NCBI GenBank assembly: GCA_965248695.1
Contig: CBDFKD010000002.1
Coordinates: 5,056,001 to 5,120,000 of the forward strand
Length of the DNA stretch: 64,000 bases
Direction of reading: 5' to 3'
DNA from: Acidobacteriota bacterium
Lineage (GTDB): Bacteria > Acidobacteriota > UBA890 > WLXD01
In this document: piece by piece, positions 12,937 to 64,000 of the stretch
How the letters are laid out: each line of letters begins with the position of its first letter
Position numbering within the stretch: position 1 is the first letter of the stretch
Notes under the pieces: generated by a model
What the model was told of the DNA's origin: nothing
Databases searched by the model: none
Seen by the model: only the letters and a program-made list of their open reading frames with translations
Program-made: the position numbers and the translations under genes

Positions 12937-12966
12937 CGAGGCTTCCGCAGCCCCAGGAGGTGGGCG

Positions 12967-13947
12967 ATGCCTGCTCTCGAGCCAACGCCGTACATGTGGC
13001 ACAACGGCAAGCTGATCCCGTGGGCCGAAGCGACGGTTCACGTCGGTACCCACGCGCTGCACTACGGCTCTTCGGTATTCGAAGGAATCCGCTGCTACAA
13101 GACCGAGCGCGGCCCGGCGGTCTTCCGCCTGCCGGAGCACGCCCGCCGTCTGGTTGACTCGGCGCGCATCTATAGGATGGATCTCGACTACGACGCCGAG
13201 CAGCTGGCCGAGGCCTGTCTGGAGACCATCCGTGCCAACGAGATGGAGCACTGCTACATCCGCCCGATCACGTTTCGCGGCTACCATTCGCTCGGCGTCG
13301 ACCCGCTCCCGTGCCCGCTCGAGACGTACATCATGGTGTGGGAGTGGGGCGCCTATCTCGGGGAGGAAGCGCTCGAGTCGGGCGCCGATCTGAAGGTGTC
13401 GTCGTGGAATCGGATGGCTCCCAACACGCTGCCCTTCATGGCCAAGGCCGGCGCCAATTACATGAACTCGCAGCTCGTGAAGATGGAGGCGCTTTCGGAG
13501 GGCTTCGCCGAGGCGATCGCGCTGACTCCCGATGGGTTGGTGTCGGAAGGCAGCGGCGAGAACGTCTTCATCGTTCGCGACGAGATCGTTCACACTCCCA
13601 GCACGGCGGCGTCGATTCTCCCCGGGATCACCCGTGATTGCGTCATCACGCTCGCCCGCGACCTCGGCTTCGAGGTGCGCGAAACTGCCATCCCCCGCGA
13701 GATGCTGTACGTCGCTGACGAAGTCTTCATGAGCGGGACGGCCGCCGAGATCACGCCGGTCCGATCGATCGATCGCATCCAGATCGGGGCTGGCCAGCGC
13801 GGTCCGGTGACGGCTCAGATCCAGCGGCACTTCTTCGAAATCGTTCAGGGGCGAACGGACGATCTGTACGGCTGGCTGACGGCAGTGTACCCGGATGCTG
13901 GCGATCCACGCGCGGAGGCAATGGCGGGCGAGAGCTCGGTGGCCTGA
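12967..13947 (+). CDS. ilvE: branched-chain amino acid aminotransferase
   Basis: HALHYGSSVFEGIR, YIRP, KAGANY, EGSGEN, LPGITR, GTAAE. AGGAGG SD. Confidence 0.97.
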   Translation: MPALEPTPYMWHNGKLIPWAEATVHVGTHALHYGSSVFEGIRCYKTERGPAVFRLPEHARRLVDSARIYRMDLDYDAEQLAEACLETIRANEMEHCYIRPITFRGYHSLGVDPLPCPLETYIMVWEWGAYLGEEALESGADLKVSSWNRMAPNTLPFMAKAGANYMNSQLVKMEALSEGFAEAIALTPDGLVSEGSGENVFIVRDEIVHTPSTAASILPGITRDCVITLARDLGFEVRETAIPREMLYVADEVFMSGTAAEITPVRSIDRIQIGAGQRGPVTAQIQRHFFEIVQGRTDDLYGWLTAVYPDAGDPRAEAMAGESSVA

Positions 13948-13957
13948 GGACAGCGAC

Positions 13958-15079
13958 ATGGATCTCGATACCCTTCTCTGGGAGGCTGTTGATCGTGGTG
14001 CCTCCGATCTCCACCTGCGAGCCGGTAGTCCACCGATGCTCCGTGTCGACGGCGAGATCGAGCCGGTAGACGAAGAGCAGGCGCTGACGTCGGCAGATAC
14101 CGCCGCCGTGGCGAAGGAAATCCTCAAGGACCACCACGTCAACCTGGAGGCCATGCGGGAGGTCGACGTCGGCTACGCGGTTCGGGAGTTGGGCCGCTTT
14201 CGCGTCAACTTGTTCACCAACAGCGGCCAGGTCGGCATCGTGCTGCGGATCATGCCGCCGGAACCGCTCGGACTGGACGAGCTCAACCTGCCCCCGGTAC
14301 TGGCCAAGGTCGCCAGCGAAAACCGCGGGCTCGTGCTGGTAACCGGCGTAACCGGCAGCGGTAAGTCGACCACCCTGGCCGCGATGATCGACCATATCAA
14401 TCGCAATCGGTGCCGCCACATCATCACGATCGAGGATCCGATCGAGTACGTTCACATCGACAGAAACAGTCTGATCACACAACGTCAGCTCGGACTCGAC
14501 ACCAACTCGTTTGCCGACGCGTTGCGCGCAGCGCTGCGGCAGGATCCGGACGTGATCCTCATCGGTGAGATGCGCGACCGCGAGACCATCGATGCGGCGG
14601 TGCTCGCCGCCGAGACCGGCCACCTGGTGTTCTCGACACTGCACACGGTCGACGCGCCGGAAACCCTCAACCGCATCCTGTCGACATACCCGCCGTACCA
14701 GCAGGAGCAGGTACGTACCCAGCTGGCGGATGTCCTCCGGTCCGTCATCTCACAGCGGCTCTTGACGCGTATCGACGGCGAGGGGCTAGTGCCGGCGGTC
14801 GAGGTGTTGATCAACTCGAAGTTCGTTTCCGAGTGCATCCGCGACGTCAAGCGAGCGCAGAAGATCCGCGACGCGATGAGCGAGGGAGGGGAGCGATACG
14901 GGATGCAGACGTTCGATCAGTCGATCCTCTCGCTTTGTCAACGCGAGCTCATCTCCGAGGAGGTCGCCGTGGCCGCCGCTACGGTGCCGAGCGATCTGAA
15001 GTTGCAGCTGCGCGGCATCGTTTCGGGGATCGACCCCGGACGCGGTGGTCAGGGGAGCGGCTCGACACGGTCCGGTTGA
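13958..15079 (+). CDS. PilT/PilU-family retraction ATPase
   Basis: ASDLHL, GVTGSGKSTT, TIEDPIE, LRQDPDVILIGEMRD, TGHLVFSTLHT, GMQTFDQ. Confidence 0.95.
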   Translation: MDLDTLLWEAVDRGASDLHLRAGSPPMLRVDGEIEPVDEEQALTSADTAAVAKEILKDHHVNLEAMREVDVGYAVRELGRFRVNLFTNSGQVGIVLRIMPPEPLGLDELNLPPVLAKVASENRGLVLVTGVTGSGKSTTLAAMIDHINRNRCRHIITIEDPIEYVHIDRNSLITQRQLGLDTNSFADALRAALRQDPDVILIGEMRDRETIDAAVLAAETGHLVFSTLHTVDAPETLNRILSTYPPYQQEQVRTQLADVLRSVISQRLLTRIDGEGLVPAVEVLINSKFVSECIRDVKRAQKIRDAMSEGGERYGMQTFDQSILSLCQRELISEEVAVAAATVPSDLKLQLRGIVSGIDPGRGGQGSGSTRSG

Positions 15080-26348: not shown

Positions 26349-27521
26349 ATGCCGCAGGTGGTCGAGGCCGCTCAGCTGGGAACGAACGAAGATCAAGCGC
26401 TTATCGCGCAGACCGTGCGCGAGTTCGCCGAAGCCGAGATTCGCCCCTACGTGCGCGAATGGGACGAGGCGCAGCACTTTCCGGACACACTGCTACGCAG
26501 CATGGGCGATCTCGGGCTCATGGGAGTGATGATTCCCGAGCAGTACGGTGGTGCAGGCATGGGGCCCCGGGAGCTCGCCACTGTGATCGAGGAGCTCGCG
26601 CGGGTGGACCCGTCGGTGGCGTTGTCGGTGGCGGCGCACAATGGACTTTGTGTCGGGCATCTGATGATCGCCGCCAGCGAAGAGCAGCGGCGGCGCTACC
26701 TGCCACGGCTGGCGACGGCCGAGTGGGTCGGTTGCTGGGGGCTGACCGAAGCACGGTCCGGATCCGACGCCGCCGGTACCCAGACACGAGCCGTTCTTGA
26801 TGACACGAGCAACCAGTGGATTCTCAATGGCTCGAAGACGTTCAATACCAATGGCGCGCGGGCGGACCTGGCGGTCATCCATGCCGTGACCACACCCGGA
26901 CACGGCAACAAGGGGATCTCGGCGTTCGCGGTCGAGCGTGGCACGGCCGGTTATCGCGTTGGCCGCAAGGAGGACAAGCTAGGGATGCGCGCCAGCGATA
27001 CCGTCGAGCTGGTGCTCCAGGACTGCGCCGTTCCGGCGGAGAATCTGCTGGGCGAGCTCGATCATGGCTTCATAGATGCGCTCAAAGTGCTCGATCGCGG
27101 GCGTATCAGCATCGGGGCCCTGTCGGTCGGTGTTGGTCAGGCAGCGCTTGATGCGGCGATCGGGTACGTCCACGAGCGGCAACAGTTCGGGCGCCCGATC
27201 GGTAGCTTCGAGGCAATCCGTCACAAGCTGGCGCGGATGGCCGCCGAGATCGGGGCGGCGCGGCTGATGGTGATGCGCGCCGCGATGCTGCGCGAGCTCG
27301 GCAGGCCGTTCAAGAACATGGCCTCGATGGCGAAGCTCTACGCCTCGGAGGTCGGTATGCGTGCCGCCGAGGAGTCGGTGCAGATCCACGGTGGATACGG
27401 CTACGTGAAGGATTATCCGGTCGAGAAGTATTTCCGCGACGCCAAGCTCTGCACCATCGGTGAGGGGACCTCGGAAATTCAGCGGCTGGTCATCTCCCGA
27501 CAGCTCCTGGCGGCGATCTGA
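26349..27521 (+). CDS. acyl-CoA dehydrogenase (short/branched-chain type)
   Basis: LTEARSGSD, GSKTFNTN, KLGMRASDT, QFGRPI, IHGGYGY, RDAK..TIGEGTSEIQ (catalytic Glu present). Confidence 0.96.
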   Translation: MPQVVEAAQLGTNEDQALIAQTVREFAEAEIRPYVREWDEAQHFPDTLLRSMGDLGLMGVMIPEQYGGAGMGPRELATVIEELARVDPSVALSVAAHNGLCVGHLMIAASEEQRRRYLPRLATAEWVGCWGLTEARSGSDAAGTQTRAVLDDTSNQWILNGSKTFNTNGARADLAVIHAVTTPGHGNKGISAFAVERGTAGYRVGRKEDKLGMRASDTVELVLQDCAVPAENLLGELDHGFIDALKVLDRGRISIGALSVGVGQAALDAAIGYVHERQQFGRPIGSFEAIRHKLARMAAEIGAARLMVMRAAMLRELGRPFKNMASMAKLYASEVGMRAAEESVQIHGGYGYVKDYPVEKYFRDAKLCTIGEGTSEIQRLVISRQLLAAI

Positions 27522-51027: not shown

Positions 51028-51253
51028 TTGACCAACATCCTCGGACGGGAGAAACGTCGACTGAACCGTCCGCAGGGTCCGTGGGCGTCAAACATCTGTC
51101 AAGAGCGCGACCCCGCCGTTTCGATGCTGTCGGCGATGGGGCGAAATGACCCGCGCCAGATTGCCTCGTATTTGGGCAGCGGGTACTCTCTGGCGCGATG
51201 CGAAGCGCTTGCCGTACCCGGCGAGCCTCCCTACAGCCCTCACCCTCTTTCGC

Positions 51254-52492
51254 ATGTCACTGAAGCTGTTCCGCGAAGCCCTGGCAGGTCGCGAGCGATT
51301 GCCGCGCATGTGGCGTCAGCACGCCCTCAAGGATAGCTACGACGCGGTCATCATCGGCGGTGGCGCCCACGGCCTCGCCTGCGCCTATTACCTCGCCAAG
51401 GACCACGGCCTGACCGACGTTGCGGTAGTGGAGAAGACCTATATCGGCTCGGGGGGCAGCGGCCGCAATACGGCCATAGTTCGCAGCAACTATCTGACCC
51501 CGGAAGGGGTGCGCTTCTACGATGCCAGCCTCAAGCTCTACGAGGGTCTGGCCCGAGACCTCGATTTCAACGTCATGCTGGGCCAGCGCGGCCATCTCAC
51601 GCTGGCGCACAGCGACTCGTCGGTGATCACCATGCGTCGCCGCGCCGAGACCAACAAACTCGTCGGGGTCGACTCGCGGCTGATCTTCCCCGGCGAGATT
51701 GCCAAGCTGTGCCCCGAGCTGGACCTGAGCGATCGGCCGCGGTACCCGATACTGGCTGCGCTCTATCACCCACCCGGCGGCATTATCCGGCACGATGCCG
51801 TGGTGTGGGGCTACGCACACCAGGCCGATGCACGGGGTGTGCACATCCACCAGAACACCGCGGCAACCGGGATCGATATCGCCGATGGCAAGGTCACAGC
51901 TGTCCAGACCACCCAGGGTCGGATCAAGACGGGTACGGTCCTCAACGCGACCGCCGGCTGGGGGGCGATCATCTCGGATATGGCGGGCGTCAAGCTGCCC
52001 ATGACGACCCGTCCGCTGCAGGCGTTCGTTACCGAGCCGTTGAAGCCGTTCCTCAACGTGGTGATCGTTTCCGGGAGCTTGCACGCCTACGTCAGCCAGT
52101 CCGACCGCGGCGAGCTGGTATGCGGCGGCAGCGTCGACCCGTACGCGTCCTATTCGATGAACTCTTCGCTCGATTTCATGGAAGGCCTGGCTGGCCATCT
52201 GCTGGCGCTGTTTCCGTGTCTGCCGAAGGTGAGTGTTCTGCGCCAGTGGGCCGGCCTATGCGACATGACGCCCGACTACAGTCCGATCATGGGCAAGACG
52301 CCGGTCGAGGGATTCCACATCGATCTCGGTTGGGGCACCTACGGGTTCAAGGCATCGCCTATCTGCGGCAAGACGCTCGCGGAGCTGCTGGCGACGGGTC
52401 GGACGCCCGACCTGATCCGGCCGTTCCGGCTATCCCGCTTTGCCGAGCACAACTTGGTCGGAGAAGGCGGCGCCGCCTCGGTCGGACACTGA
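51254..52492 (+). CDS. soxB: sarcosine oxidase beta / N-methylglutamate dehydrogenase MgdA-like flavoprotein
   Basis: IIGGGAHGLA.AYYLA, GRNTAIVRSNY, RHDAV.WGYA, LRQWAG..DMTPD.SPI, GWGT.GFKA. Confidence 0.9.
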   Translation: MSLKLFREALAGRERLPRMWRQHALKDSYDAVIIGGGAHGLACAYYLAKDHGLTDVAVVEKTYIGSGGSGRNTAIVRSNYLTPEGVRFYDASLKLYEGLARDLDFNVMLGQRGHLTLAHSDSSVITMRRRAETNKLVGVDSRLIFPGEIAKLCPELDLSDRPRYPILAALYHPPGGIIRHDAVVWGYAHQADARGVHIHQNTAATGIDIADGKVTAVQTTQGRIKTGTVLNATAGWGAIISDMAGVKLPMTTRPLQAFVTEPLKPFLNVVIVSGSLHAYVSQSDRGELVCGGSVDPYASYSMNSSLDFMEGLAGHLLALFPCLPKVSVLRQWAGLCDMTPDYSPIMGKTPVEGFHIDLGWGTYGFKASPICGKTLAELLATGRTPDLIRPFRLSRFAEHNLVGEGGAASVGH

Positions 52493-52514
52493 TGCGTCGG
52501 AGCTGGAGGACCCT

Positions 52515-52817
52515 GTGCTGCTGCTGACCTGCCCCAACTGCGGCCCCAGAAACGTGAGCGAGTTTCGCTTCGGCAACGAGTACAACCCGCGCCCGGCAGA
52601 CCCCGCCGCCGTAACGGAAGCCGAGTGGGTCGACTATCTCCATCTGCGCAACAACAAGGTCGGCGTGCAGAAGGAGTGGTGGCACCACGGAACCGGCTGC
52701 GGTCTGTGGCTCCTGGCGGAGCGAGACACCAAGACCGGTGTGGTGTTGCGCACCTATCTCTGGTCCGACGCCGACGCGAATACGGATACGCAGTCAGACA
52801 CCGGGGCAGAGTCGTGA
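52515..52817 (+). CDS. soxD: sarcosine oxidase delta / MgdB-like
   Basis: CPNCGPR..SEF, W.DYL..R.N..G...E.W.H..GC..W....RDT. GGAGGA SD. Confidence 0.92.
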   Translation: MLLLTCPNCGPRNVSEFRFGNEYNPRPADPAAVTEAEWVDYLHLRNNKVGVQKEWWHHGTGCGLWLLAERDTKTGVVLRTYLWSDADANTDTQSDTGAES

Positions 52818-55711
52818 AGCGTCTGCCCGAGGGCGGCACGTCGATCGATCGATCCTCGAGCCTGCAGTTCACCTTCGATGGCAAGAAGGTCGAAGCGCAT
52901 CCGGGCGACACCGTCGGCTCGGCGCTGGCCGCCTCGGGAGTCCGGGTTGTCAGCCGCTCGTTCAAATACCACCGTCCACGCGGCCTGCTGTGCTGTTCCG
53001 GGCATTGCCCGAACTGTCTCGTTCAGATCGGTGATGAGCCCAACGTTCGCGCCTGTATGCGGCCGGTTGAGAGTGGGCTGCAAGTCCGTTCGCAAAACGC
53101 CTGGCCGTCGCTACGATTCGACCTGCTTTCGCTGAGTCGGTTCACCTCGCGCTTCATGCCGGCCGGTTTCTATTACAAGACCTTCATCCGGCCGAAGTGG
53201 TTGTGGCCGTTCTACGAGCATGTGCTCCGCAATGCCGCCGGTCTCGGCGTTGTCGATCCCGACACACCGAGAGGCCGATACGACAAGCAGTATCGCCATG
53301 CCGATGTCGTCGTGAGCGGCGGTGGACCTGCCGGAATCAGTGCGGCACATGCCGCCGGTGCAAGCGGCGCGCGAGTGCTGTTGATCGACGACAACACCGA
53401 GCTTGGCGGGCATCTCAGGTTTGCCGGGGTATCGTCGGACCCCGACGGCGAGGTGGAGCGGCGTCGCACCGAGCTCGATGGCATGGACAACGTCGAAGTG
53501 CTGACAGACACGTCCGTGCTCGGCTGGTACCGCAGCGACTGGCTGGCCGCCAAGACCGGGAACCGGCTGCTCAAGATTCGCCTGCGTTCGCTGGTGGCGG
53601 CGACGGGCGCTTTCGAGCGTCCGCTCCAGTTCGACAACAACGACTTGCCCGGAGTGATGCTCGGCGGCGCCGTGCGCCGCCTACTCCACCAGTTCGGCGT
53701 CGTCGCCGGCCGGCGTGCCGTGGTGGTCGCGGCGAATGACGACGGTTGGGACGTTGCCGCCGATTTGCGCGCTGCAGGGGTGGAGATTGCTGCCATCGTC
53801 GAAGAGCGCGCCGCAGGGATCTGTGCCAGTCGGAATGCCGACTCCCTGATCGCGGCTGGGGTGCCCGTTCACCATCAGCACACGGTGGTCAAAGCTACCG
53901 GGTCAAACTGCGTCAGTTCGACCACCATCGCCCAGGTAGGCGACGGCGACGCAGTGAACGGAGATTCCTACAAGACGATCAACTGTGACCTGCTGGTCAT
54001 CAGCGCCGGCTGGACACCGGACACCGACCTGACTCATCTGGCAGGCGGCAAGACACGCTACGATGCGGATCGTGCCGAGATGTTGCCGACCGAGCTGCCG
54101 ACCCATCTTCAGGTCGTCGGCCGTGCCGCCGGTACCCACGATCTGCACACGCAGCTCCTGGAAGGGGAGCTTGCCGGCCAAGCGGCGGCCCACGAGCTAG
54201 GGTTCGGCTCGCCACCGGATAGCGCCGGACTGGCGGAGCTGCACCGACTCAAGAACACCGAGCCGCAGCGTAGCTCGGCTCGCGTGACGATTCCTGGAGG
54301 CGCCACCAAGAAGCGGTTCGTATGTCTGTGCGAGGACGTTACCGAGGAGGACATCCTCGCGACGATCGCCGAAGGCTACGACAGCATGCAGCTGCTCAAG
54401 CGCTACAGCACCGTATCGATGGGACCGTGTCAGGGAAAGATGTGCTCGATGGCGGCGATTCAGATCTGCGCCCGCGAGACCGGTCGTTCGATTCCGGAAA
54501 CCGGCACGACAACCTCGAGGCCGCCGGCAACGCCTGTTTCGTTGGGGGCCCTGGCGGGACAGGAGATGGACCCCGTTCAGCTCGGCGCGCTGCACGACTG
54601 GCACCTGGCCAACGGCGGCAAGTCGATGGTCGCGGGGCAGTGGATTCGCGCCGAGCACTACGGGGACGCGGTTGCGGAAGTGAGGGCGGTGCGCGAGGCC
54701 GTGGGCCTGATCGATGTCAGCTCGCTCGGGAAGCTTCGTTTGACCGGTCCGGGCGTTCCGGATCTGTTGCAGCGCGTCTACATCAACAAGTGGCGAAAGC
54801 TCGGCGTCGGCCAGTCGCGCTACGGTGTGATGTGCAACGACGAGGGCATCGTTCTGGACGATGGCGTGTGCGCCCGCGTGGGAGAGCAGGAGTGGTACAT
54901 GAGCACGACGTCCTCCGGCGCCACCGGCATGTACGACTGGATGCAGTGGTGGATTCAGTCGGGCTGGGGGGAGGGGATCCACCTGACCAACGTCACCGAG
55001 GCCTACGCGGCGATGAACCTGGCAGGTCCGCGTACGCGCGACGTCCTGTCTGCGCTCACTGACATCGACCTGAGCGATGCTGCGTTCCCCTACATGGCGG
55101 TACGCAGCGGCGATGTCGCCGGTGTCCCGTGTCGCCTCCTGCGCATCGGTTTCACCGGCGAACTGTCGTACGAGATTCACTGCCCTTCGGGCCACGCCCT
55201 GCATCTGTGGGAGGCTTTGATTGACGCCGGCCAGCCCCACGGTCTGAAGCCGTTCGGGGTCGAAGCACAGCGCGTTCTCCGACTAGAAAAGGGCCATATC
55301 ATCGTCGGCCACGATACCGACGGTCTGACCGACCCGATCATGGCGAACATGGAATGGGCCGTGAAGCTGGATAAGTCGGACTTCCTCGGCATGCGCCATC
55401 TGAGCCGGGTCGCCAAGCACGGGCCGCGGGAGCGCCTGGTGGGCTTCAAGGTTCCGCCCGGTGGCACCAAGCCTGAGGAAGGAATGCAGATCGTGGCGGC
55501 GAGCAACGGCCAGCCGCAGGTGATCGGCTGGGTTACGTCCTGTCGCCTTAGCCCGACGCTCGGTGAGGTCATCGGCCTGTGCTGGCTGCCCGCCGAGCTG
55601 GGGGATCGCAACGGCGCCGAATTCACCATCCACATCGATGGACGATCGCAGGTGGCCAGTGTTTGGCACGGCGCCTTCTACGACCCCGAGGGCAAGAGGT
55701 TGCGACCGTGA
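52814..55711 (+). CDS. soxA: sarcosine oxidase alpha / MgdC-like (Fe-S, FAD/NAD, GcvT domains)
   Basis: GDT..SAL.A, RSFKYHRPRG, CCSGHCPNC, GFYYKTF, GGGPAG, CLCEDVT, GPCQGK.C, DVSSLGK, GFTGELSYEI, LRLEKG, FYDPEG. Confidence 0.93.
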   Translation: MKRLPEGGTSIDRSSSLQFTFDGKKVEAHPGDTVGSALAASGVRVVSRSFKYHRPRGLLCCSGHCPNCLVQIGDEPNVRACMRPVESGLQVRSQNAWPSLRFDLLSLSRFTSRFMPAGFYYKTFIRPKWLWPFYEHVLRNAAGLGVVDPDTPRGRYDKQYRHADVVVSGGGPAGISAAHAAGASGARVLLIDDNTELGGHLRFAGVSSDPDGEVERRRTELDGMDNVEVLTDTSVLGWYRSDWLAAKTGNRLLKIRLRSLVAATGAFERPLQFDNNDLPGVMLGGAVRRLLHQFGVVAGRRAVVVAANDDGWDVAADLRAAGVEIAAIVEERAAGICASRNADSLIAAGVPVHHQHTVVKATGSNCVSSTTIAQVGDGDAVNGDSYKTINCDLLVISAGWTPDTDLTHLAGGKTRYDADRAEMLPTELPTHLQVVGRAAGTHDLHTQLLEGELAGQAAAHELGFGSPPDSAGLAELHRLKNTEPQRSSARVTIPGGATKKRFVCLCEDVTEEDILATIAEGYDSMQLLKRYSTVSMGPCQGKMCSMAAIQICARETGRSIPETGTTTSRPPATPVSLGALAGQEMDPVQLGALHDWHLANGGKSMVAGQWIRAEHYGDAVAEVRAVREAVGLIDVSSLGKLRLTGPGVPDLLQRVYINKWRKLGVGQSRYGVMCNDEGIVLDDGVCARVGEQEWYMSTTSSGATGMYDWMQWWIQSGWGEGIHLTNVTEAYAAMNLAGPRTRDVLSALTDIDLSDAAFPYMAVRSGDVAGVPCRLLRIGFTGELSYEIHCPSGHALHLWEALIDAGQPHGLKPFGVEAQRVLRLEKGHIIVGHDTDGLTDPIMANMEWAVKLDKSDFLGMRHLSRVAKHGPRERLVGFKVPPGGTKPEEGMQIVAASNGQPQVIGWVTSCRLSPTLGEVIGLCWLPAELGDRNGAEFTIHIDGRSQVASVWHGAFYDPEGKRLRP

Positions 55712-56415
55712 GCGCCGCCCGTCCGCGGCTACTGACACCTCTATATGGCGTTGCCGTGCGTCTCGGGGCACAGTTCGCCGATGGCGGGGCTGGCTGGCAG
55801 ATTCCCGCGAGCTACGGCGATTCGGCGGCCGAGGCCTCCGCAGTGCGAGACCGACTCGGGATCGCCGACGTCTCGGCGGATGGCAACCTGCGAATCGAGG
55901 GGGCCGCTGCCGAGGCGGTGCTGGGAACAGCATATGGACTGCGGGTGCCGGAAATCGGCGAGAGCGCCGCGCTCGGCGAGGGGCGCTGCTATCGCGTACG
56001 CACGGACCTGTTCGTGGTCACGACCCCGCCGGGCGCCGAAGGGGCGGTGGACGATGCGATCGGCTCAGCCGCGCAGGCGGCGGATCAACGGGTCACGGTG
56101 ACCGTGATGACCCATGGACAGGCCAACATCCGTATAATCGGTGCGCGCGTGACCGAGTTGATGAGCAAGCTGTGCGGCCTGGACTTCGGCCCCGCAGCAT
56201 TCCCGAACGGAGCGGTCAGGCGGACGAGCTTTGCCAAGACGGGGCAGCTGATCATTCGTCGCGACCTGGACCGACTCCCCGCCTTTCTGGTGATCGGGGC
56301 TCGGTCAGCTGCACCCTACGTTTGGGAGACGATCATGGAGGCCGGCGAGGAATATGGCATCACGCCAATCGGGCGGGATGCGCTGGCCGCCATCGCTTCA
56401 GACAGCATCGCTTAA
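55708..56415 (+). CDS. soxG: sarcosine oxidase gamma / MgdD-like
   Basis: Short GcvT-like fold: KLCGLD, F..G....T.FAK, RS.A.Y.W..I..AG.EYG. Overlaps the soxA stop. Confidence 0.85.
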   Translation: MSAARPRLLTPLYGVAVRLGAQFADGGAGWQIPASYGDSAAEASAVRDRLGIADVSADGNLRIEGAAAEAVLGTAYGLRVPEIGESAALGEGRCYRVRTDLFVVTTPPGAEGAVDDAIGSAAQAADQRVTVTVMTHGQANIRIIGARVTELMSKLCGLDFGPAAFPNGAVRRTSFAKTGQLIIRRDLDRLPAFLVIGARSAAPYVWETIMEAGEEYGITPIGRDALAAIASDSIA

Positions 56416-57921: not shown

Positions 57922-58869
57922 ATGTGTGGAATCGCCGGGATCATTCACCGCAACAAGACGGGCAACGTCGGCGCCGAGATGACCGGCATGCTCCAGGCCA
58001 TGAAGCATCGTGGTCCGGACTCGACCGGGTTCGCGTTTTACGGTGTTCCGAACGAAGACGAGTTGCTGCTGCGCTTCAAGGTAGCGGAGCATGAGGATCT
58101 TGAGACGGGTTTCGAGATCCACGATGCGATCAAGCGACGCCGCGCCGAGGTGGACGAGCGCATCGAATCGATGGGCGGCGATATTCAGGTGGCCGAGGCG
58201 CCGACCGAGTATGCCTTCCTCTACCGCCTCCGTTTTGATCCCAAGCTCGAGAGCCTGGCGCGTCTGGCCGACTATATCGAGGACGTCGACGGTGCCGAGG
58301 TGCTGTCGATTGGCAACGCGCTGGAGGTCGTCAAGGATCTGGGCGACGCCACCGAGGTGAGCAACCAATACGAGATGGGCAAGTTCGTTGGCACGCACGC
58401 CATCGGCCACACGCGCATGGCCACCGAGTCCGACGTCGATATCTGCTCGGCGCATCCGTACTGGGCCTACCCGGTCAGCGATGTCTCGGTGGTGCACAAC
58501 GGCCAGCTGACCAACTACTGGAGCAAGCGGCGCGAGCTGGAGCGCAGCGGCCACCGATTTCTCTCCGACTGTGATTCAGAGCTCATTGCCGTGTATGTCG
58601 CCGAGCTGACCGAGCGTGGGAAGTCGCTAGAGGAAGCGATGCGTCAGTCGGTGGACGAGCTCGACGGCGTATTCAGCTATCTGGTTGCCACCTCGGACGG
58701 GCTCGGTCTGGCCAAGGACACCATGGCCGCCAAGCCCATGGTGCTGTACGAAGGCGACGACTGCATCGTCATGGCCTCGGAGGAAGTGGCGATCCGGACC
58801 GTGTTCCAGGAGGAGATCGACACCTTTGATCCGTACGCCGGGGATGTACGTGTCTGGAGCACCAACTGA
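57922..58869 (+). CDS. N-methylglutamate synthase subunit A (GlxB/MgsA; Ntn amidotransferase)
   Basis: MCGIAG, HRGPDS.G, GHTRMATES, AHP, HNGQL.N, DSE, LDG.F, ASEE. Confidence 0.88.
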   Translation: MCGIAGIIHRNKTGNVGAEMTGMLQAMKHRGPDSTGFAFYGVPNEDELLLRFKVAEHEDLETGFEIHDAIKRRRAEVDERIESMGGDIQVAEAPTEYAFLYRLRFDPKLESLARLADYIEDVDGAEVLSIGNALEVVKDLGDATEVSNQYEMGKFVGTHAIGHTRMATESDVDICSAHPYWAYPVSDVSVVHNGQLTNYWSKRRELERSGHRFLSDCDSELIAVYVAELTERGKSLEEAMRQSVDELDGVFSYLVATSDGLGLAKDTMAAKPMVLYEGDDCIVMASEEVAIRTVFQEEIDTFDPYAGDVRVWSTN

Positions 58870-59681
58870 TGACTGATGTCCACGCGGAGCCACTGAAGGG
58901 CCGTTCCTACAAGACCATGTTCCGGGCCGAGGAAGGAGAAAACCTCGTCTATCCGGACAGCGTCGAGGTCGACTTCGATAGCCGTGCTGAATTCGATGCT
59001 GCCGAGATGGACACCAGCTCGATCAACAAGCGCATCCGTGAGCTCATGGGCGAGGGCCACGGTCACATCGTGGTCCTCAATCCGGGCGCCAAGCATTCCC
59101 TCGGCGTGGGTATCCTCAATCGGCTGCAGCTGGATTTCGATGGATCACTGGGCTACTTCGGGATCGGACTCAACGATGGTCCGAACGTACGCATCCGGGG
59201 ACGAGTCGGCTGGTCATGTGGAGAGAACATGATGGCCGGTACCATCGTCATCGAAAAGAACGCCGGCTCGTGTTTCGGCGCCGCGATCCGCGGCGGCGAT
59301 CTCGTCTGCAGGGGAGACGTCGGAGCGCGAACCGGGATCAACCAGAAGGGTGGAACCATCATCGTAGGTGGCCGAACCGGAATGCTCTCGGGGTTCATGA
59401 TGCAGCGCGGCCGCATGATCTTTCTCGGCGACGCTGGCGAGAGCCTCGGTGACTCGATGTATGACGGCACCATCTTCGTCGGCGGCGAGATCGCGTCGTT
59501 GGGAATCGATGCGGTACCCGGAGAGATGACCGATGTCGAGGCGCATTGGTTGCAGCGCAAGCTCGATCTCTACGGCCTCAAAGCACCCAACGGCGTCGAG
59601 AAGCTGCAGAAGATCGTTGCCGGCAAACAGCTTTGGAACTACGACAACCTCGAACCTACTGAAAAGAAGATCGTCCTGTGA
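58869..59681 (+). CDS. N-methylglutamate synthase subunit B (GlxC/MgsB; GXGXG beta-helix)
   Basis: NP.AKHS.GVG, GS.GYF, ENMM.G, G.VGAR.GI..KG, GDS.Y, LWNYD. Confidence 0.9.
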   Translation: MTDVHAEPLKGRSYKTMFRAEEGENLVYPDSVEVDFDSRAEFDAAEMDTSSINKRIRELMGEGHGHIVVLNPGAKHSLGVGILNRLQLDFDGSLGYFGIGLNDGPNVRIRGRVGWSCGENMMAGTIVIEKNAGSCFGAAIRGGDLVCRGDVGARTGINQKGGTIIVGGRTGMLSGFMMQRGRMIFLGDAGESLGDSMYDGTIFVGGEIASLGIDAVPGEMTDVEAHWLQRKLDLYGLKAPNGVEKLQKIVAGKQLWNYDNLEPTEKKIVL

Positions 59682-61021
59682 CTGATAACGGCAAGCGCAA
59701 CAAGGACGTCCTGGGTGAGAACTTTCTGTTCAAGCCCAGCGTTATCGACGACATCCACATCAAAGCGGATCTCGGCCGCTACCGCATGCGCGGCATGGCG
59801 CTGTTCAAGACCATCCCTACCTGGGATGACCTGACGTTCCTGCCCGGCACGCTGACGCGCTTCGTGATCGAAGGCTATCGCGAGAAGTGTCTGACGAAGA
59901 CGGTTCTCGGCCCGAAGGCCAAGCGCCCGCTGGAGCTCGATATCCCGATCTACATCACCGGCATGAGCTTCGGGGCGCTTTCGTACGAGGCCAAGGTAGC
60001 GCTGGCACGCGGTGCGACGATGGCTGGAACCGCCACTTGCTCGGGGGAGGGCGGCATGCTGCCGGACGAGCGCCGTTACTCGTCGAAGTGGCTCTACCAG
60101 TGCATCCAGTCGCGCTACGGGTTCAACCCGCATCATCTTCGACTCGCTGACGGCTGCGAGTTCTTCATCGGACAGGGCTGCAAGGTGGGGCTTGGCGGGC
60201 ACCTCATGGGGCAGAAGGTCACCGATCAGGTGGCCGAGATGCGCAATCTGCCGGCCGGAATCGACCAGCGCTCACCGGCGAGACATCCGGACTGGCTGGG
60301 ACCGGACGATCTGGCTCTGAAGATCGACGAGATCCGCGAGGCGACCAACGGGGAGATCCCCATCCAGCTCAAGCTCGGATCGGCGCGTGTCTACGACGAT
60401 GTTCGCATGGCCGCCAAGACGGGTCCGGATAGCATCTACCTCGACGGTATGGAGGGCTCGACGGGAGCCGGTCCGCATCTCGCCACCGAAGAGACGGGAG
60501 TGCCGGGAATCGCTGCCATCCGGCAGGCGCGCCACGCGCTCGATGACGTGGGCAAGACCGGGGAGATATCGCTCGTCTACGCCGGCGGTATCCGCAACGG
60601 CGCCGACGTCGCCAAGGCCCTGGCGCTGGGTGCCGACGCCATCGCGATTGGCACAGCCGCTATGGTGGCGCTCAACTGCAACCGCGACATTCCAGAGGCC
60701 GACTTTGAGGGAACCATCGGCGTGCCGGCGGGTTACTGCTATCACTGCCACACCGGTCTGTGCCCGGTCGGTGTCGCCACTCAGGATCCGGAGCTGCGCA
60801 AGCGGCTGGATCCCGACGAGGCGGCGATCCGTGTCTACAACTTCCTGCATACGCTGGCCATCGAGTGCCAGATGATGGCGCGCGCCTGCGGCAAGACGAA
60901 CGTGCACTCGCTGGAGCCCGAAGACCTGGCGGCGTTGACCTCCGAGGCGTCGGCCATGGCCGAGGTGCCGCTCGCCGGCACCCGATACACCGTCGGCCAT
61001 CCGGAAATGACCCGGTTCTGA
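59678..61021 (+). CDS. N-methylglutamate synthase subunit C (GlxD/MgsC; FMN-binding glutamate synthase domain)
   Basis: EGYREKC.T, GMSFGALS, GEGGM, GQG.K.G.GG.L.GQK, DQRS..RHPDW.GPDDL, GGIR.G.D, CYHCHTG.CP.G..TQ, RACGK. Confidence 0.93.
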   Translation: MTDNGKRNKDVLGENFLFKPSVIDDIHIKADLGRYRMRGMALFKTIPTWDDLTFLPGTLTRFVIEGYREKCLTKTVLGPKAKRPLELDIPIYITGMSFGALSYEAKVALARGATMAGTATCSGEGGMLPDERRYSSKWLYQCIQSRYGFNPHHLRLADGCEFFIGQGCKVGLGGHLMGQKVTDQVAEMRNLPAGIDQRSPARHPDWLGPDDLALKIDEIREATNGEIPIQLKLGSARVYDDVRMAAKTGPDSIYLDGMEGSTGAGPHLATEETGVPGIAAIRQARHALDDVGKTGEISLVYAGGIRNGADVAKALALGADAIAIGTAAMVALNCNRDIPEADFEGTIGVPAGYCYHCHTGLCPVGVATQDPELRKRLDPDEAAIRVYNFLHTLAIECQMMARACGKTNVHSLEPEDLAALTSEASAMAEVPLAGTRYTVGHPEMTRF

Positions 61022-61059: not shown

Positions 61060-61470
61060 GTGAACGACGAAGCCTCGAAGCCAGACGAAGAGCAGGACGT
61101 CGACTACTACCTCAAGTCGAGCGGGCTGGATACCGACCGCGAGGTCGAGATCGGCCAGCACATCGGCTACCGGTACGACGTCAACCTCGTTCCCGACTAC
61201 TCGCTGCTCACTCCGTTGCTGAAGAAGTACATCGAGCTGATGGGCTGGGACGATCTCAACTGGATGGAGGACGTCCATATGGGCTACGAGGAAGGCCGTT
61301 CGGCGGTCTTCGATCGCAACATCAACGGTTGGGTTGTCGTGCCAGACGACATGGAACTGCCTGACTCGCAACAAGAGCGAGATATGGTAGCGCGCGAGTT
61401 ACTGTTGAAGTTCCAGATGTCGCCGCAGCATCCGCTCTACGACCTGGGCGAGAGACACAAGAAGTTCTGA
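61060..61470 (+). CDS. hypothetical acidic 136-aa protein
   Basis: Codon usage matches the neighbours. It fills the gap between mgsC and the ACAD-fold gene. The GTG start is inferred. Confidence 0.8.
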   Translation: MNDEASKPDEEQDVDYYLKSSGLDTDREVEIGQHIGYRYDVNLVPDYSLLTPLLKKYIELMGWDDLNWMEDVHMGYEEGRSAVFDRNINGWVVVPDDMELPDSQQERDMVARELLLKFQMSPQHPLYDLGERHKKF

Positions 61471-61529
61471 CGTCCAGGGTGGTCGCGCGGCGGCCAGCAT
61501 CGGTCGACGTTAACGAATGCGAGGCTGAC

Positions 61530-62927
61530 TTGAGCGACACCAAGAAGTGGGGCACAGAAGAGTTCTGGGGGCTGGCATATGATTGGGATCCGCAGTGGAT
61601 CCTGACGCCGGAACAGCAAGGGCTCCAGGCGGCCTTGATCGACCTGTGCCAGACCTCCATGCGTGACAACGCCGTGGAAAGCGATCGCGAGCTGATCTTC
61701 CCGCGCAAGAACTTCGAAGCGCTTGCCTCGCTCGGCCTGCTGGGCCTTATGGTGCCGAAGGACCTCGGCGGCCGCGGTGAGAACCACACGTGCTTGGCGA
61801 TGGTGGTCGAGACGATCGCGCGGTACGGCTGCCCGAGCACGGCGATGTGCTACACGATGCACATCGGCGCGATGGCGGCGGCGATGCTCCGGGCTCACGG
61901 CAGCGAGACCATCCAGAACCTGATGCGGCGGCTCGATGACGAGGTGCTGGTCGGCACGCTGTCGTATTCCGATCCCGAGACCGGTTCTCACTTCTGGTAT
62001 CCGTTCTCGTCCAGCGCCGAGCGTGTTGACGGCGGCTGGAAGGTCAACAAGAAGGCATCCTGGACGACCTCGGGCGGGTTCGCTGACTGGTACATCATCC
62101 AGACCACCAGCCCGGACTTCGATGGCGACTACTCGGATCTGTCCTGCTTCCTGATCATGGCCGACGAGATCAAAGCAGATCCGTCCACTTGGGACGGCCT
62201 CGGTTTGCGCGGCAACCAATCAGGACCCCTGTACGTGGAGGACAAGACGATCCCCGAGGACCGCCTCATCGGGCCGATCGGCGATGGTGCGAGCTCGAAC
62301 GACGAGGCGGTCGACCCCTTCTTCCTGCTGTGCTCCTCCTCGTGCTGGAACGGCATCTCGATGGGTCTGATCGATATCACCAAGGGGCACACGACCAAGA
62401 AGAAGCATGTCGACGTGGGAATGCGAGTGTGCGATTACCCGACGATTCAGGACTACGTCGGCGAAGCAGTGATCGACACGAACACGTCGCGCGCCTTCGT
62501 CTATCAGCTGGCCTCGGCGATGGACAAGAAGACCGATGACTGCGACTGGTCTCTGCACGAGGATCTCTCGGTATTGCCGCGGTCGACCGTCTTGCACTGG
62601 ATGTGGCAGGTGAAGTTCACCGCTGCCAAGAACGTTGCCCACGTGGCCGACAAGATGCTCCACGCCTGTGGTGGCACGGGTTACAAGCCGGCGCTCGGTA
62701 TCGAGCGATACCTTCGCGACGGCAAGGCGGGTTGGGTCATGGGGCCGACCAACGAGGTGTTGCGCCAGTTTGTCGGCAAGGCGGTGCTCCTGGGCTTCGA
62801 CTCGCTGGACTACTGGAACCAGTCGATCAACGAGCGGGCGCTCCACAACGAGATCAAGAAGATGGACGCCGCGGCCAAGAGCGCGCTCGCCAAGCAGCTG
62901 CTCGCGGAGGCCGAGGAATCGCAGTGA
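61530..62927 (+). CDS. acyl-CoA dehydrogenase-fold flavoprotein, non-canonical
   Basis: GL.VP..LGG.G, S.PETGS, K..W.TS, W.GLGLRG..S, CGG.GY, IERYLRD, TNEV. The TTG start is inferred (GAGG upstream). Confidence 0.9.
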   Translation: MSDTKKWGTEEFWGLAYDWDPQWILTPEQQGLQAALIDLCQTSMRDNAVESDRELIFPRKNFEALASLGLLGLMVPKDLGGRGENHTCLAMVVETIARYGCPSTAMCYTMHIGAMAAAMLRAHGSETIQNLMRRLDDEVLVGTLSYSDPETGSHFWYPFSSSAERVDGGWKVNKKASWTTSGGFADWYIIQTTSPDFDGDYSDLSCFLIMADEIKADPSTWDGLGLRGNQSGPLYVEDKTIPEDRLIGPIGDGASSNDEAVDPFFLLCSSSCWNGISMGLIDITKGHTTKKKHVDVGMRVCDYPTIQDYVGEAVIDTNTSRAFVYQLASAMDKKTDDCDWSLHEDLSVLPRSTVLHWMWQVKFTAAKNVAHVADKMLHACGGTGYKPALGIERYLRDGKAGWVMGPTNEVLRQFVGKAVLLGFDSLDYWNQSINERALHNEIKKMDAAAKSALAKQLLAEAEESQ

Positions 62928-64000
62928 TCCAGTCGCAGCTCGATGGGCCGCGATGGGCCGCGGGGGGCCTACTTCACCAGATCCCCGGTAGGGAGCGCTA
63001 TCGAGTCGCCGGCGGCGGCGCCACGGTCGTGGCACTGGCGGCCGGCGATCGCATCGACATCACCGACGTCGAGGGCGGCCAGCGCTGTGAGCTGGCGGTG
63101 TTCTCTCCGACCGGCGGCGAGGACAGCGCAGCACTCAACGCGGCTCCCGACAGCCAGCTGGGCGTGCTGGGTATCGCTCAGGCAAGCCGCGAGGGCGATG
63201 CGGGCGCCGCGGTGGCGTCGCTGCTGGCGCACGGTATCGATCCGCGCGGAGCTCCGGCGCTACAGCTGTTTCGGGGCGACGGGCCCGCTGGCGCACAGGA
63301 GTCGTTCACCGCCGAGCGCGACGTCGTCTGTATCGTCGGCGCCCCCGGCGGTCCCATGCGTGTCGATGCGCAGGATCCACCCACCGATCTCGAGATGATC
63401 ATCCAACGTGCCCGGGTGACCGAGACCCCGGAGACCCCACTACCCGCCCCACTCGGCGATATGCGGATCGACCTGCGGGTGGAGCGTGCCGGGGCGCGCG
63501 CCTACGAGGTGAAGGCCGGCGAGTACATTCAGGTGATCGACGTTGCTGGTCAACAGTGCTCGGATTTCCTCGCATTCCGGTCCGATGCCCTCCAAGACGG
63601 GGTGGAGAAAGGGCTGGACCCCACTGCCACCCGCACTTTCATGGGTGCGGCGTATCCCGGGCCCGGCCTGTACTCGAAATTCTTCGACCCGGATCTACAG
63701 GCGCTTGTCGAAGTCGTTCGCGATACGGTCGGCCGCCACGACACCTTCGGCCTGGCATGTACGGCGAAATACTACGAGGACATGGGGTACTTCGGTCACG
63801 CCAACTGTTCCGACAACTTCAACGCCGAGCTGGATCCGTTCACCATCGCGCCGCGCAAGGGTTGGCCGGCGATCAACTTCTTCTACAATACGCGCATCGA
63901 CGACGACAACGTCCTTTACCTCGATGAGCCGTGGTCGCGACCCGGCGACTACGTCTTGCTTCGCGCCCTGACCGATCTTGTTTGTTTGACTTCGGCCTGT
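62924..64000 (+). CDS. tdm: trimethylamine N-oxide demethylase-like (DUF1989 + presumably GcvT), 3'-partial
   Basis: Missing from the ORF track because it has no stop in the window. Translated by hand: ERYRVAGGG, DVEGGQRCEL, AYEVKAGEYIQVIDVAGQQCSDF, DTVGRHDTFGLAC..KYYEDMGYFGHANCSDNFN, INFFYNT, SRPGDYVLLRALTDLVC.TSAC. Confidence 0.85.
   Translation, partial: MIQSQLDGPRWAAGGLLHQIPGRERYRVAGGGATVVALAAGDRIDITDVEGGQRCELAVFSPTGGEDSAALNAAPDSQLGVLGIAQASREGDAGAAVASLLAHGIDPRGAPALQLFRGDGPAGAQESFTAERDVVCIVGAPGGPMRVDAQDPPTDLEMIIQRARVTETPETPLPAPLGDMRIDLRVERAGARAYEVKAGEYIQVIDVAGQQCSDFLAFRSDALQDGVEKGLDPTATRTFMGAAYPGPGLYSKFFDPDLQALVEVVRDTVGRHDTFGLACTAKYYEDMGYFGHANCSDNFNAELDPFTIAPRKGWPAINFFYNTRIDDDNVLYLDEPWSRPGDYVLLRALTDLVCLTSAC

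Follow-up and report, generated by a model that had tools for sequence, protein, structure and literature searches.

An acyl-CoA dehydrogenase-fold flavoprotein linked to trimethylamine N-oxide demethylase is a candidate two-component trimethylamine monooxygenase

We analysed a 64,000-nucleotide stretch (hereafter the window) of the genome of an Acidobacteriota bacterium (assembly GCA_965248695.1, contig CBDFKD010000002.1, positions 5,056,001 to 5,120,000), in which a flavoprotein with the fold of acyl-CoA dehydrogenases (ACADs) is encoded directly before tdm, the gene for trimethylamine N-oxide (TMAO) demethylase. Comparison across genomes suggests that this ACAD-fold protein is probably the oxygenase of a two-component flavin monooxygenase of the group D type, which would convert trimethylamine (TMA) to TMAO in place of the unrelated class B enzyme Tmm. 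The initial annotation of the window had presented the ACAD-fold protein and a small protein encoded before it as a candidate amine N-oxygenase or N-demethylase pair that fills a gap in the methylamine pathway. For the ACAD-fold protein this idea is supported by the tie to tdm, the missing catalytic glutamate and the comparative evidence; the pairing has to be given up, since the small open reading frame (ORF) follows mgsC. The gap does appear to be a methylated-amine step, and the comparative evidence favours TMA to TMAO over dimethylamine (DMA) to monomethylamine (MMA).

Both ORFs lie between mgsC and tdm on the + strand, as annotated (Table 1), and the ACAD stop overlaps the tdm start in the letters GTGA at 62924-62927. 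The ACAD-fold ORF is open from a GTG at 61479, and a TTG at 61530 has GAGG 7 nt upstream; homologues are ~465 amino acids long and their start matches the position of this TTG, which makes 61530-62927 the likelier gene. Pfam detects Acyl-CoA_dh_N (62 bits) and Acyl-CoA_dh_1 (41 bits), both above cut-off, with a middle domain at 30.9 bits, slightly below its cut-off of 33.3, and no FMO-like domain. The AlphaFold2 (AF2) model has a predicted local distance difference test score (pLDDT) of 91.7, and with this model Foldseek matches many ACADs at a template modelling (TM) score of ~0.9 of the target. Pfam, AF2 and Foldseek thus agree on a three-domain ACAD fold. As the model superposes on ordinary ACADs, the fold alone cannot tell a dehydrogenase from an oxygenase.

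The catalytic residue is more telling. In the motif RDGKAGWVMGPTNEVLR, Gly405 of V-M-G-P-T aligns by HMMER with the glutamate of Y-E-G-T in the solved ACADs 3pfd and 8i4p, and this position is Gly, or Ala in distant relatives, in 43 of 43 rows of our alignment A1. The protein therefore lacks the glutamate that a functional ACAD carries at the Y-E-G-T position, as the initial annotation had noticed by comparison with an ordinary ACAD of the window (RDAKLCTIGEGTSEIQR, 27435-27485). The other motif that it had named, VDPFFLL, is located at 62310-62330. Region VDPFFLLCSSSCWNGISMG, the presumed approximate site of the alternative helix-G glutamate of isovaleryl-CoA and long-chain ACADs, contains no glutamate. 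The best NCBIfam match is Rv1679/FadE16 (NF049984; residues 60-436 score 210.8 bits, far short of the family cut-off of 600), with SfnB at 64.2, HsaA at 62.1 and DszC at 47.9 bits. Matches to PDB chains include 4zxv, DnmZ (1e-10), and 3m9v (1.1e-12), the latter titled just 'FAD-dependent oxidoreductase'.

Scanning a collection of one genome per species for the ACAD family returned 263 encoding stretches, of which the best 80 were retrieved together with flanks of up to 10 kb. The window proteins served as tblastn queries against these 80 loci, and the ORFs of the loci were clustered without prior labels. Of the 80 loci, 43 include a Flavin_Reduct gene (PF01613, 137 bits), which is on the ACAD strand in 41 of the 43 and at most 400 bp from ACAD in at least 28 of them; in Latescibacterota and Gemmatimonadota loci it stands close to the end of tdm. 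Furthermore, three distant ACAD relatives are fused to FAD_binding_6 and NAD_binding_1 domains, an FNR-type reductase (P0242, 770 amino acids, 53% identity; P0252, 882 amino acids, 37%; P0249, 562 amino acids), and would be self-sufficient forms of the two-component system. The missing glutamate, the neighbouring reductase and the reductase fusions together point to the oxygenase of a two-component flavin monooxygenase. The source genome holds a single Flavin_Reduct gene (C2:1560117-1560572), which lies ~3.5 Mb from the ACAD gene and is 33-55% identical to the linked ones. A separate flavin reductase, as group D enzymes have, is thus found at the level of the family, and the sole candidate in the source genome is encoded in trans. 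The initial annotation had cast the small ORF in the role of partner, which it does not fill, and had not foreseen the Flavin_Reduct protein.

Whole-genome searches covered 51 ACAD-bearing genomes, namely the source genome and those of 50 of the 80 loci, picked mainly for long contigs (all loci except L008, L010, L016, L021, L023, L026, L030, L032-L035, L038-L041, L043, L045, L046, L052, L054, L055, L057, L058, L069, L075, L077, L079 and L081-L083). Tdm is encoded in 51 of 51, 35 times above the equivalog cut-off, and is the sole partner present in all of them; its background frequency is 33 of 401 Alphaproteobacteria in an even sample. At the loci themselves, a tdm match over more than half of the query occurs in 52 of the 80, often adjoining or overlapping the ACAD gene. 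The Tdm next to ACAD in the source genome is genuine, the complete gene encoding 781 amino acids that score 1218.7 bits with NF053776 (cut-off 1100).

Tmm, in contrast, is nearly absent. Its model NF058570 exceeds the cut-off in one of the 51 ACAD-bearing genomes, so that tmm almost never accompanies the family; the initial annotation had named constant co-presence of tmm and dmm as speaking against its proposal. We arrived at NF058570 by scanning the tdm-adjacent gene of another genome (819.6 bits, cut-off 675) and used it instead of PF00743, which proved unspecific: tdm-adjacent Tmm scores ~105-125 bits on its N-terminal part, and unrelated FMO-like proteins score higher. Among the 33 Tdm-bearing Alphaproteobacteria, ACAD is present in nine genomes, Tmm in 15, both in none and neither in nine, an exclusion with a one-sided Fisher p of 0.0013, uncorrected for phylogeny. 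The source genome, which is 96.4% complete, gives no match to FMO-like PF00743, Tmm NF058570, DmmC PF11927 or DmmA PF22289, either in the window, as had been annotated, or elsewhere in the genome. A genome that has tdm and neither Tmm nor any FMO supports ACAD as the maker of TMAO.

The distribution of Dmm is of another kind. Strong DmmC hits occur in two of the nine ACAD-bearing Alphaproteobacteria, three of the 15 with Tmm and three of the nine with neither, which amounts to 2/9 with ACAD against 6/24 without it (p = 1.0). In nine loci (Xanthobacteraceae, Caballeronia, Zoogloea, Chthoniobacterales) dmmABC and ACAD occur together; eight of the nine also have Fre and tdm, and L071 has neither within the locus. 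Two of them, L078 and L084 from Caballeronia and Zoogloea, read dmmA-dmmB-dmmC-ACAD-Fre-tdm on one strand. Tmm is found in 0 of the nine corresponding genomes, so that the path from TMA to MMA is encoded there only if ACAD and Fre make TMAO. Together, an ACAD gene that in the genomes examined is always with Tdm, almost never with Tmm and indifferent to Dmm fits a non-orthologous replacement of Tmm, not of Dmm.

These data also bear on the reading in which ACAD and Fre form a monooxygenase that works after Tdm, N-hydroxylating or oxidatively demethylating DMA or MMA, and replaces DmmDABC rather than Tmm. This reading fits the same strict co-occurrence, which would be expected whether the enzyme uses what Tdm makes or makes what Tdm uses, and DmmC, found in 13 of the 51 ACAD-bearing genomes, is missing from the other 38 and from the source genome. 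We nevertheless consider it unlikely: ACAD shares one operon with dmmABC in the nine loci, DmmC is equally frequent with and without ACAD, the near-complete exclusion with Tmm would be left unexplained, and in the source genome the DMA step could instead fall to a DAO-type FAD oxidoreductase encoded right after tdm.

Equally improbable, in our judgement, is a flavin monooxygenase for some other tertiary or quaternary amine that feeds the pathway, or a hydroxylase of a TMA methyl C-H bond with Tdm acting on a related product. Identity of 70-97% across phyla makes one conserved substrate likely, Tdm is the sole partner in all 51 genomes, and the exclusion with Tmm points to the Tmm reaction specifically. 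What speaks for another amine is that the neighbourhoods differ by clade: 11-15 alphaproteobacterial loci have a divergent histidine-ammonia-lyase-family gene and a desaturase-like gene near ACAD, and 11-13 loci, almost all of them from cyanobacteria, have genes for a PhyH dioxygenase and a primary-amine oxidase there. In addition, cyanobacterial and betaproteobacterial Tdm falls below the equivalog cut-off and has ~150 fewer N-terminal residues.

Several observations weigh against the assignment of the ACAD-fold protein to TMA oxidation. Every step of the scheme is one that we infer from comparative genomics, and the exclusion test above takes no account of phylogeny. The fold search is headed by ordinary ACADs, and in sequence the protein is nearer to true ACADs and to Rv1679/FadE16 than to ACAD-fold monooxygenases. 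A flavin reductase gene adjoining ACAD is absent from the window, from the remaining Acidobacteriota loci and from those of cyanobacteria. In Virgifigura deserti (L044/G022) a full tmm (861 bits, ~12958-14283, - strand) lies between ACAD and tdm, and so the two enzymes are able to coexist; another tmm copy is present elsewhere in that genome. The nine Tdm-bearing Alphaproteobacteria with neither enzyme indicate that Tdm needs no internal source of TMAO, and the link between ACAD and Tdm may have another cause. The 38 genomes that lack DmmC are left without a known enzyme for the DMA step, so that ACAD may have a role in that step there.

If the ACAD-fold protein is indeed a TMA monooxygenase, its reaction could proceed as follows. 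A small NAD(P)H:flavin reductase would reduce flavin mononucleotide (FMN) or flavin adenine dinucleotide (FAD); in the source genome the single distant Flavin_Reduct gene is the sole candidate for this role. The reduced flavin, bound in the ACAD fold, would react with O2 to a C4a-hydroperoxyflavin, and attack of the TMA lone pair on the distal oxygen would yield TMAO and water. The translationally coupled Tdm would then cleave TMAO to DMA and formaldehyde or methylene-tetrahydrofolate, and MMA would be assimilated by the products of the upstream glutamine-synthetase-like, Mgs-like and Mgd-like genes. The small ORF would have its place outside the TMA enzyme, as a conserved fourth gene of the mgsABC-type operon.

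The ACAD family is coherent and widely distributed. The best 80 of the 263 stretches come from six phyla and are 70-97% identical, the closest being a locus in an Acidobacteriota genome (97%); matches at 75-90% identity include Acidobacteria, Latescibacteria, Alpha- and Gammaproteobacteria and Verrucomicrobia. Cultured carriers are Xanthobacter sp., Caballeronia mineralivorans PML1(12), Aquabacter sediminis and Leptolyngbya sp. JSC-1, among others. Public names of the homologues are solely generic, 'acyl-CoA dehydrogenase family' or 'AidB-like'. Clustering at 50% yields a single main cluster, beside which stand a few full-length relatives (45-53% identity); after a gap come ACAD-like proteins of ordinary length at ~30-36%. 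In a FastTree phylogeny of 81 family members and six relatives, with all rows kept, the family forms a compact clade in which Cyanobacteria are one group and Acidobacteriota, Latescibacterota and Gemmatimonadota are nested among Alphaproteobacteria. This nesting suggests that the ACAD gene spread horizontally across phyla.

The small ORF has another affiliation. It matches no Pfam or NCBIfam family, yet has thousands of homologues at 70-90% identity, named 'hypothetical' only, and over 60 of its positions are invariant in an alignment of 27 sequences. Its AF2 model has a pLDDT of 73.7 and finds no usable fold match with VIA-align against 48,161 chains (best Z 3.2) and none in the protein atlas. 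It is present in 19 of the 80 ACAD loci, each time directly after mgsC, which is 19 of the 20 loci that contain mgsC; in L037 and L042 it follows mgsC even though mgsC is ~10 kb from ACAD. Likewise, in 30 of 30 independent alphaproteobacterial loci (L100-L129) it stands directly 3' of mgsC on the same strand. Within the 401 sampled Alphaproteobacteria it occurs in 34, of which 23 bear Tdm (p ~1e-21), including 12 of the 15 Tmm-type, ACAD-less genomes and seven of the nine ACAD-type genomes. As the ORF travels with mgsC and occurs in ACAD-less genomes, we do not pair it with ACAD; in our reading it is a fourth gene, so far undescribed, of the mgsABC-type module. Its link to mgsC is constant, it is not among the three described subunits, and its product could be a fourth component of the N-methylglutamate synthase module. 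A complex prediction of MgsC with the small protein scored 0.02 and gave no verdict either way.

The version of the initial annotation, in which the small protein and the ACAD-fold protein are the two subunits of a single amine oxygenase or demethylase, is accordingly very unlikely. The two genes do adjoin on the same strand, 59 nt apart if ACAD begins at the TTG at 61530, and the gene order recurs in Acidobacteriota, Latescibacterota and Gemmatimonadota loci, but 61 of the 80 ACAD loci have no small ORF within the fetched flanks, and the ORF tracks mgsC in ACAD-less genomes as well. Least probable of all is an ordinary ACAD or related CoA-ester enzyme that neighbours tdm by chance: its top sequence and fold matches are true ACADs and its public annotation is acyl-CoA dehydrogenase family protein, but the catalytic glutamate is gone, the linkage to tdm is kept across six phyla, reductase partners and reductase fusions exist, and no fatty-acid-oxidation gene family is found among the clustered neighbouring ORFs of the ACAD loci.

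Table 1. Genes and motif of the methylamine locus, in window positions. GXGXG and FMN designate domains; aa, amino acids.
Feature	Position	Strand	Remarks
soxB-like DAO	51146-52492	+	sarcosine-oxidase-like; read as N-methylglutamate dehydrogenase subunit
soxA-like	52625-55711	+	sarcosine-oxidase-like; read as N-methylglutamate dehydrogenase subunit
soxG-like	55579-56415	+	sarcosine-oxidase-like (block 51146-56415); read as N-methylglutamate dehydrogenase subunit
glutamine-synthetase-like gene (gmaS-like), 487 aa	56436-57899	+	TIGR03105 298.5 bits, below cut-off 469.6
mgsA-like, amidotransferase	57922-58869	+	domain search
mgsB-like, GXGXG	58869-59681	+	domain search
mgsC-like, glutamate-synthase FMN domain	59678-61021	+	domain search
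small conserved ORF, 136 aa, GTG start	61060-61470	+	no known family or fold; read as fourth gene of gmaS-like/mgsABC module
ACAD-fold flavoprotein, 465 aa from TTG	61530-62927	+	proposed oxygenase component of a two-component TMA monooxygenase; Pfam, AF2, Foldseek
motif RDGKAGWVMGPTNEVLR in ACAD-fold protein	62715-62765	+	Gly405 at ACAD catalytic Glu position
tdm (TMAO demethylase), 5' part in window	62924-64000	+	gene end ~65269, outside window; GTG start overlaps ACAD stop

In the whole-genome copy of the locus, tdm is followed by the DAO-type FAD oxidoreductase gene, an Amt-family transporter gene and a second glutamine-synthetase-like gene. The DAO-type gene overlaps the tdm stop (L006:4267-5619, window ~65266-66618), encodes 450 amino acids, belongs to the soxB subfamily at only 61 bits and accompanies the gmaS-like/mgs module in 10-11 of the 80 ACAD loci. 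Where dmm is lacking, its product is a candidate catalyst of the DMA-to-MMA step. The second glutamine-synthetase-like gene (447 amino acids, L006:8041-9384) scores 645 bits, above the TIGR03105 cut-off, and the 487-amino-acid protein beside mgsABC is ~70% identical to cyanobacterial copies that adjoin ACAD; one or other of the two is a candidate gamma-glutamylmethylamide synthetase. An iron-sulphur/old yellow enzyme (Fe-S/OYE) flavoprotein encoded 17 kb downstream (656 amino acids, L006:16836-18806), from the family to which TMA dehydrogenase belongs, was considered as a TMA or DMA dehydrogenase and is not counted as such, because it scores higher for 2,4-dienoyl-CoA reductase (256 bits) than for trimethylamine dehydrogenase (193 bits).

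Other loci have neighbours of their own. Cyanobacterial loci (L064, L066, L068, L069, L072, L076, L085 and others) combine ACAD with a PhyH-family dioxygenase and a copper primary-amine oxidase (NF008559, 992.7 bits), together with an N-terminally shorter Tdm, a conserved 165-amino-acid ORF that follows tdm and fits no known family, an Amt transporter and a gmaS-like gene; they may use a different downstream route for DMA and MMA. The short Tdm form is common to Betaproteobacteria and Cyanobacteria (G034-G050), lacks ~150 N-terminal residues, its match beginning near profile position 130-158, and reaches 780-1083 bits against a cut-off of 1100. In 11-15 alphaproteobacterial loci (L023, L025, L027, L029, L031, L044, L049 and others) histidine-ammonia-lyase-family, fatty-acid-desaturase-like and cold-shock-domain genes precede Fre-ACAD. 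The lyase was considered as an ergothionase, an idea that found no support: NCBIfam matches it only weakly to histidine ammonia-lyase (147 bits, cut-off 524), and the best PDB matches are tyrosine aminomutase and histidine ammonia-lyase at ~1e-16. L025 has a serine-hydroxymethyltransferase-like gene between ACAD and tdm (324.7 bits, slightly below the 335-bit cut-off). Among the independent mgsC loci, L100-L129 include Tmm-type genomes and some of only 1.3-1.4 Mb, and the mgsC homologue of L102 (1303-2625, - strand; 88% identical) is intact apart from one in-frame stop at codon 320, which could be a sequencing error, a pseudogene or recoding.

A passage of a June 2026 paper still ascribes aerobic TMA oxidation to Tmm and shows that tmm deletion mutants of Ruegeria pomeroyi are available (PMC13390433), gene surveys count tmm, tdm and gmaS, as an excerpt of one describes (PMC5520151), and part of a 2017 paper on Dmm reports that dmmDABC is frequently absent. 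In the full-text literature that we searched, with subscription journals and supplements outside it, we found no description of an ACAD-fold or two-component enzyme for TMA oxidation. The broadest form of our proposal is that a new ACAD-fold/reductase family carries out TMA monooxygenation in many bacteria of soil and fresh water and in filamentous cyanobacteria, that it spread horizontally with tdm and displaced Tmm, and that the small ORF encodes a fourth component of the N-methylglutamate synthase-type module, also in marine Roseobacter- and SAR11-like genomes; we hold the chances of this whole picture to be evenly balanced. If true, surveys of aerobic TMA oxidation based on tmm miss a whole guild. 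Bacteria that bear tdm and lack tmm could then use TMA, among them Acidobacteriota, Latescibacterota, Gemmatimonadota, Verrucomicrobiota, many Alpha- and Betaproteobacteria and Leptolyngbya-like cyanobacteria, and it would have to be reassessed which organisms consume this volatile, climate-relevant amine in terrestrial and freshwater habitats. The ACAD fold would also gain a reaction new to it, and tertiary-amine N-oxidation would have a second biocatalyst, unrelated to the first. The small ORF, for its part, is strongly conserved and unannotated, and it belongs to one of the best-studied methylamine operons.

Compared with known systems, DmmDABC belongs to the same pathway and shares operons with ACAD in nine loci, but its families are different (DmmA-like, Fer2/NAD_binding and HODM_asu-like), and it co-occurs with ACAD rather than being replaced by it. 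Rv1679/FadE16 (NF049984) is the best NCBIfam match, and 28-36% identical relatives in A1, which we assume to be of this kind, share V-M-[GA]-P without the glutamate; they are shorter (~370-410 amino acids) and form the outgroup of the tree. Tmm is described, in part of one source, as a single-component FAD/NADPH enzyme (PMC13352529). The candidate enzyme resembles Tmm in the proposed reaction, in its site beside tdm and dmm genes and in a complementary distribution among Tdm-bearing genomes, but the ACAD-fold protein is of an unrelated fold and family and would rely on a separate flavin reductase. Dibenzothiophene monooxygenase (DszC), the amino-sugar nitrososynthases DnmZ and KijD3 and isobutylamine N-hydroxylase are group D heteroatom oxidisers with an ACAD fold. 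The ACAD-fold protein has in common with them the fold, the absence of a catalytic base, a separate reductase and weak sequence matches. It is, however, distant from them and closer to true ACADs; through N- and C-terminal extensions it is ~80 residues longer than a typical ACAD, and its proposed substrate would be a small volatile tertiary amine in catabolism, not an intermediate of natural-product synthesis.

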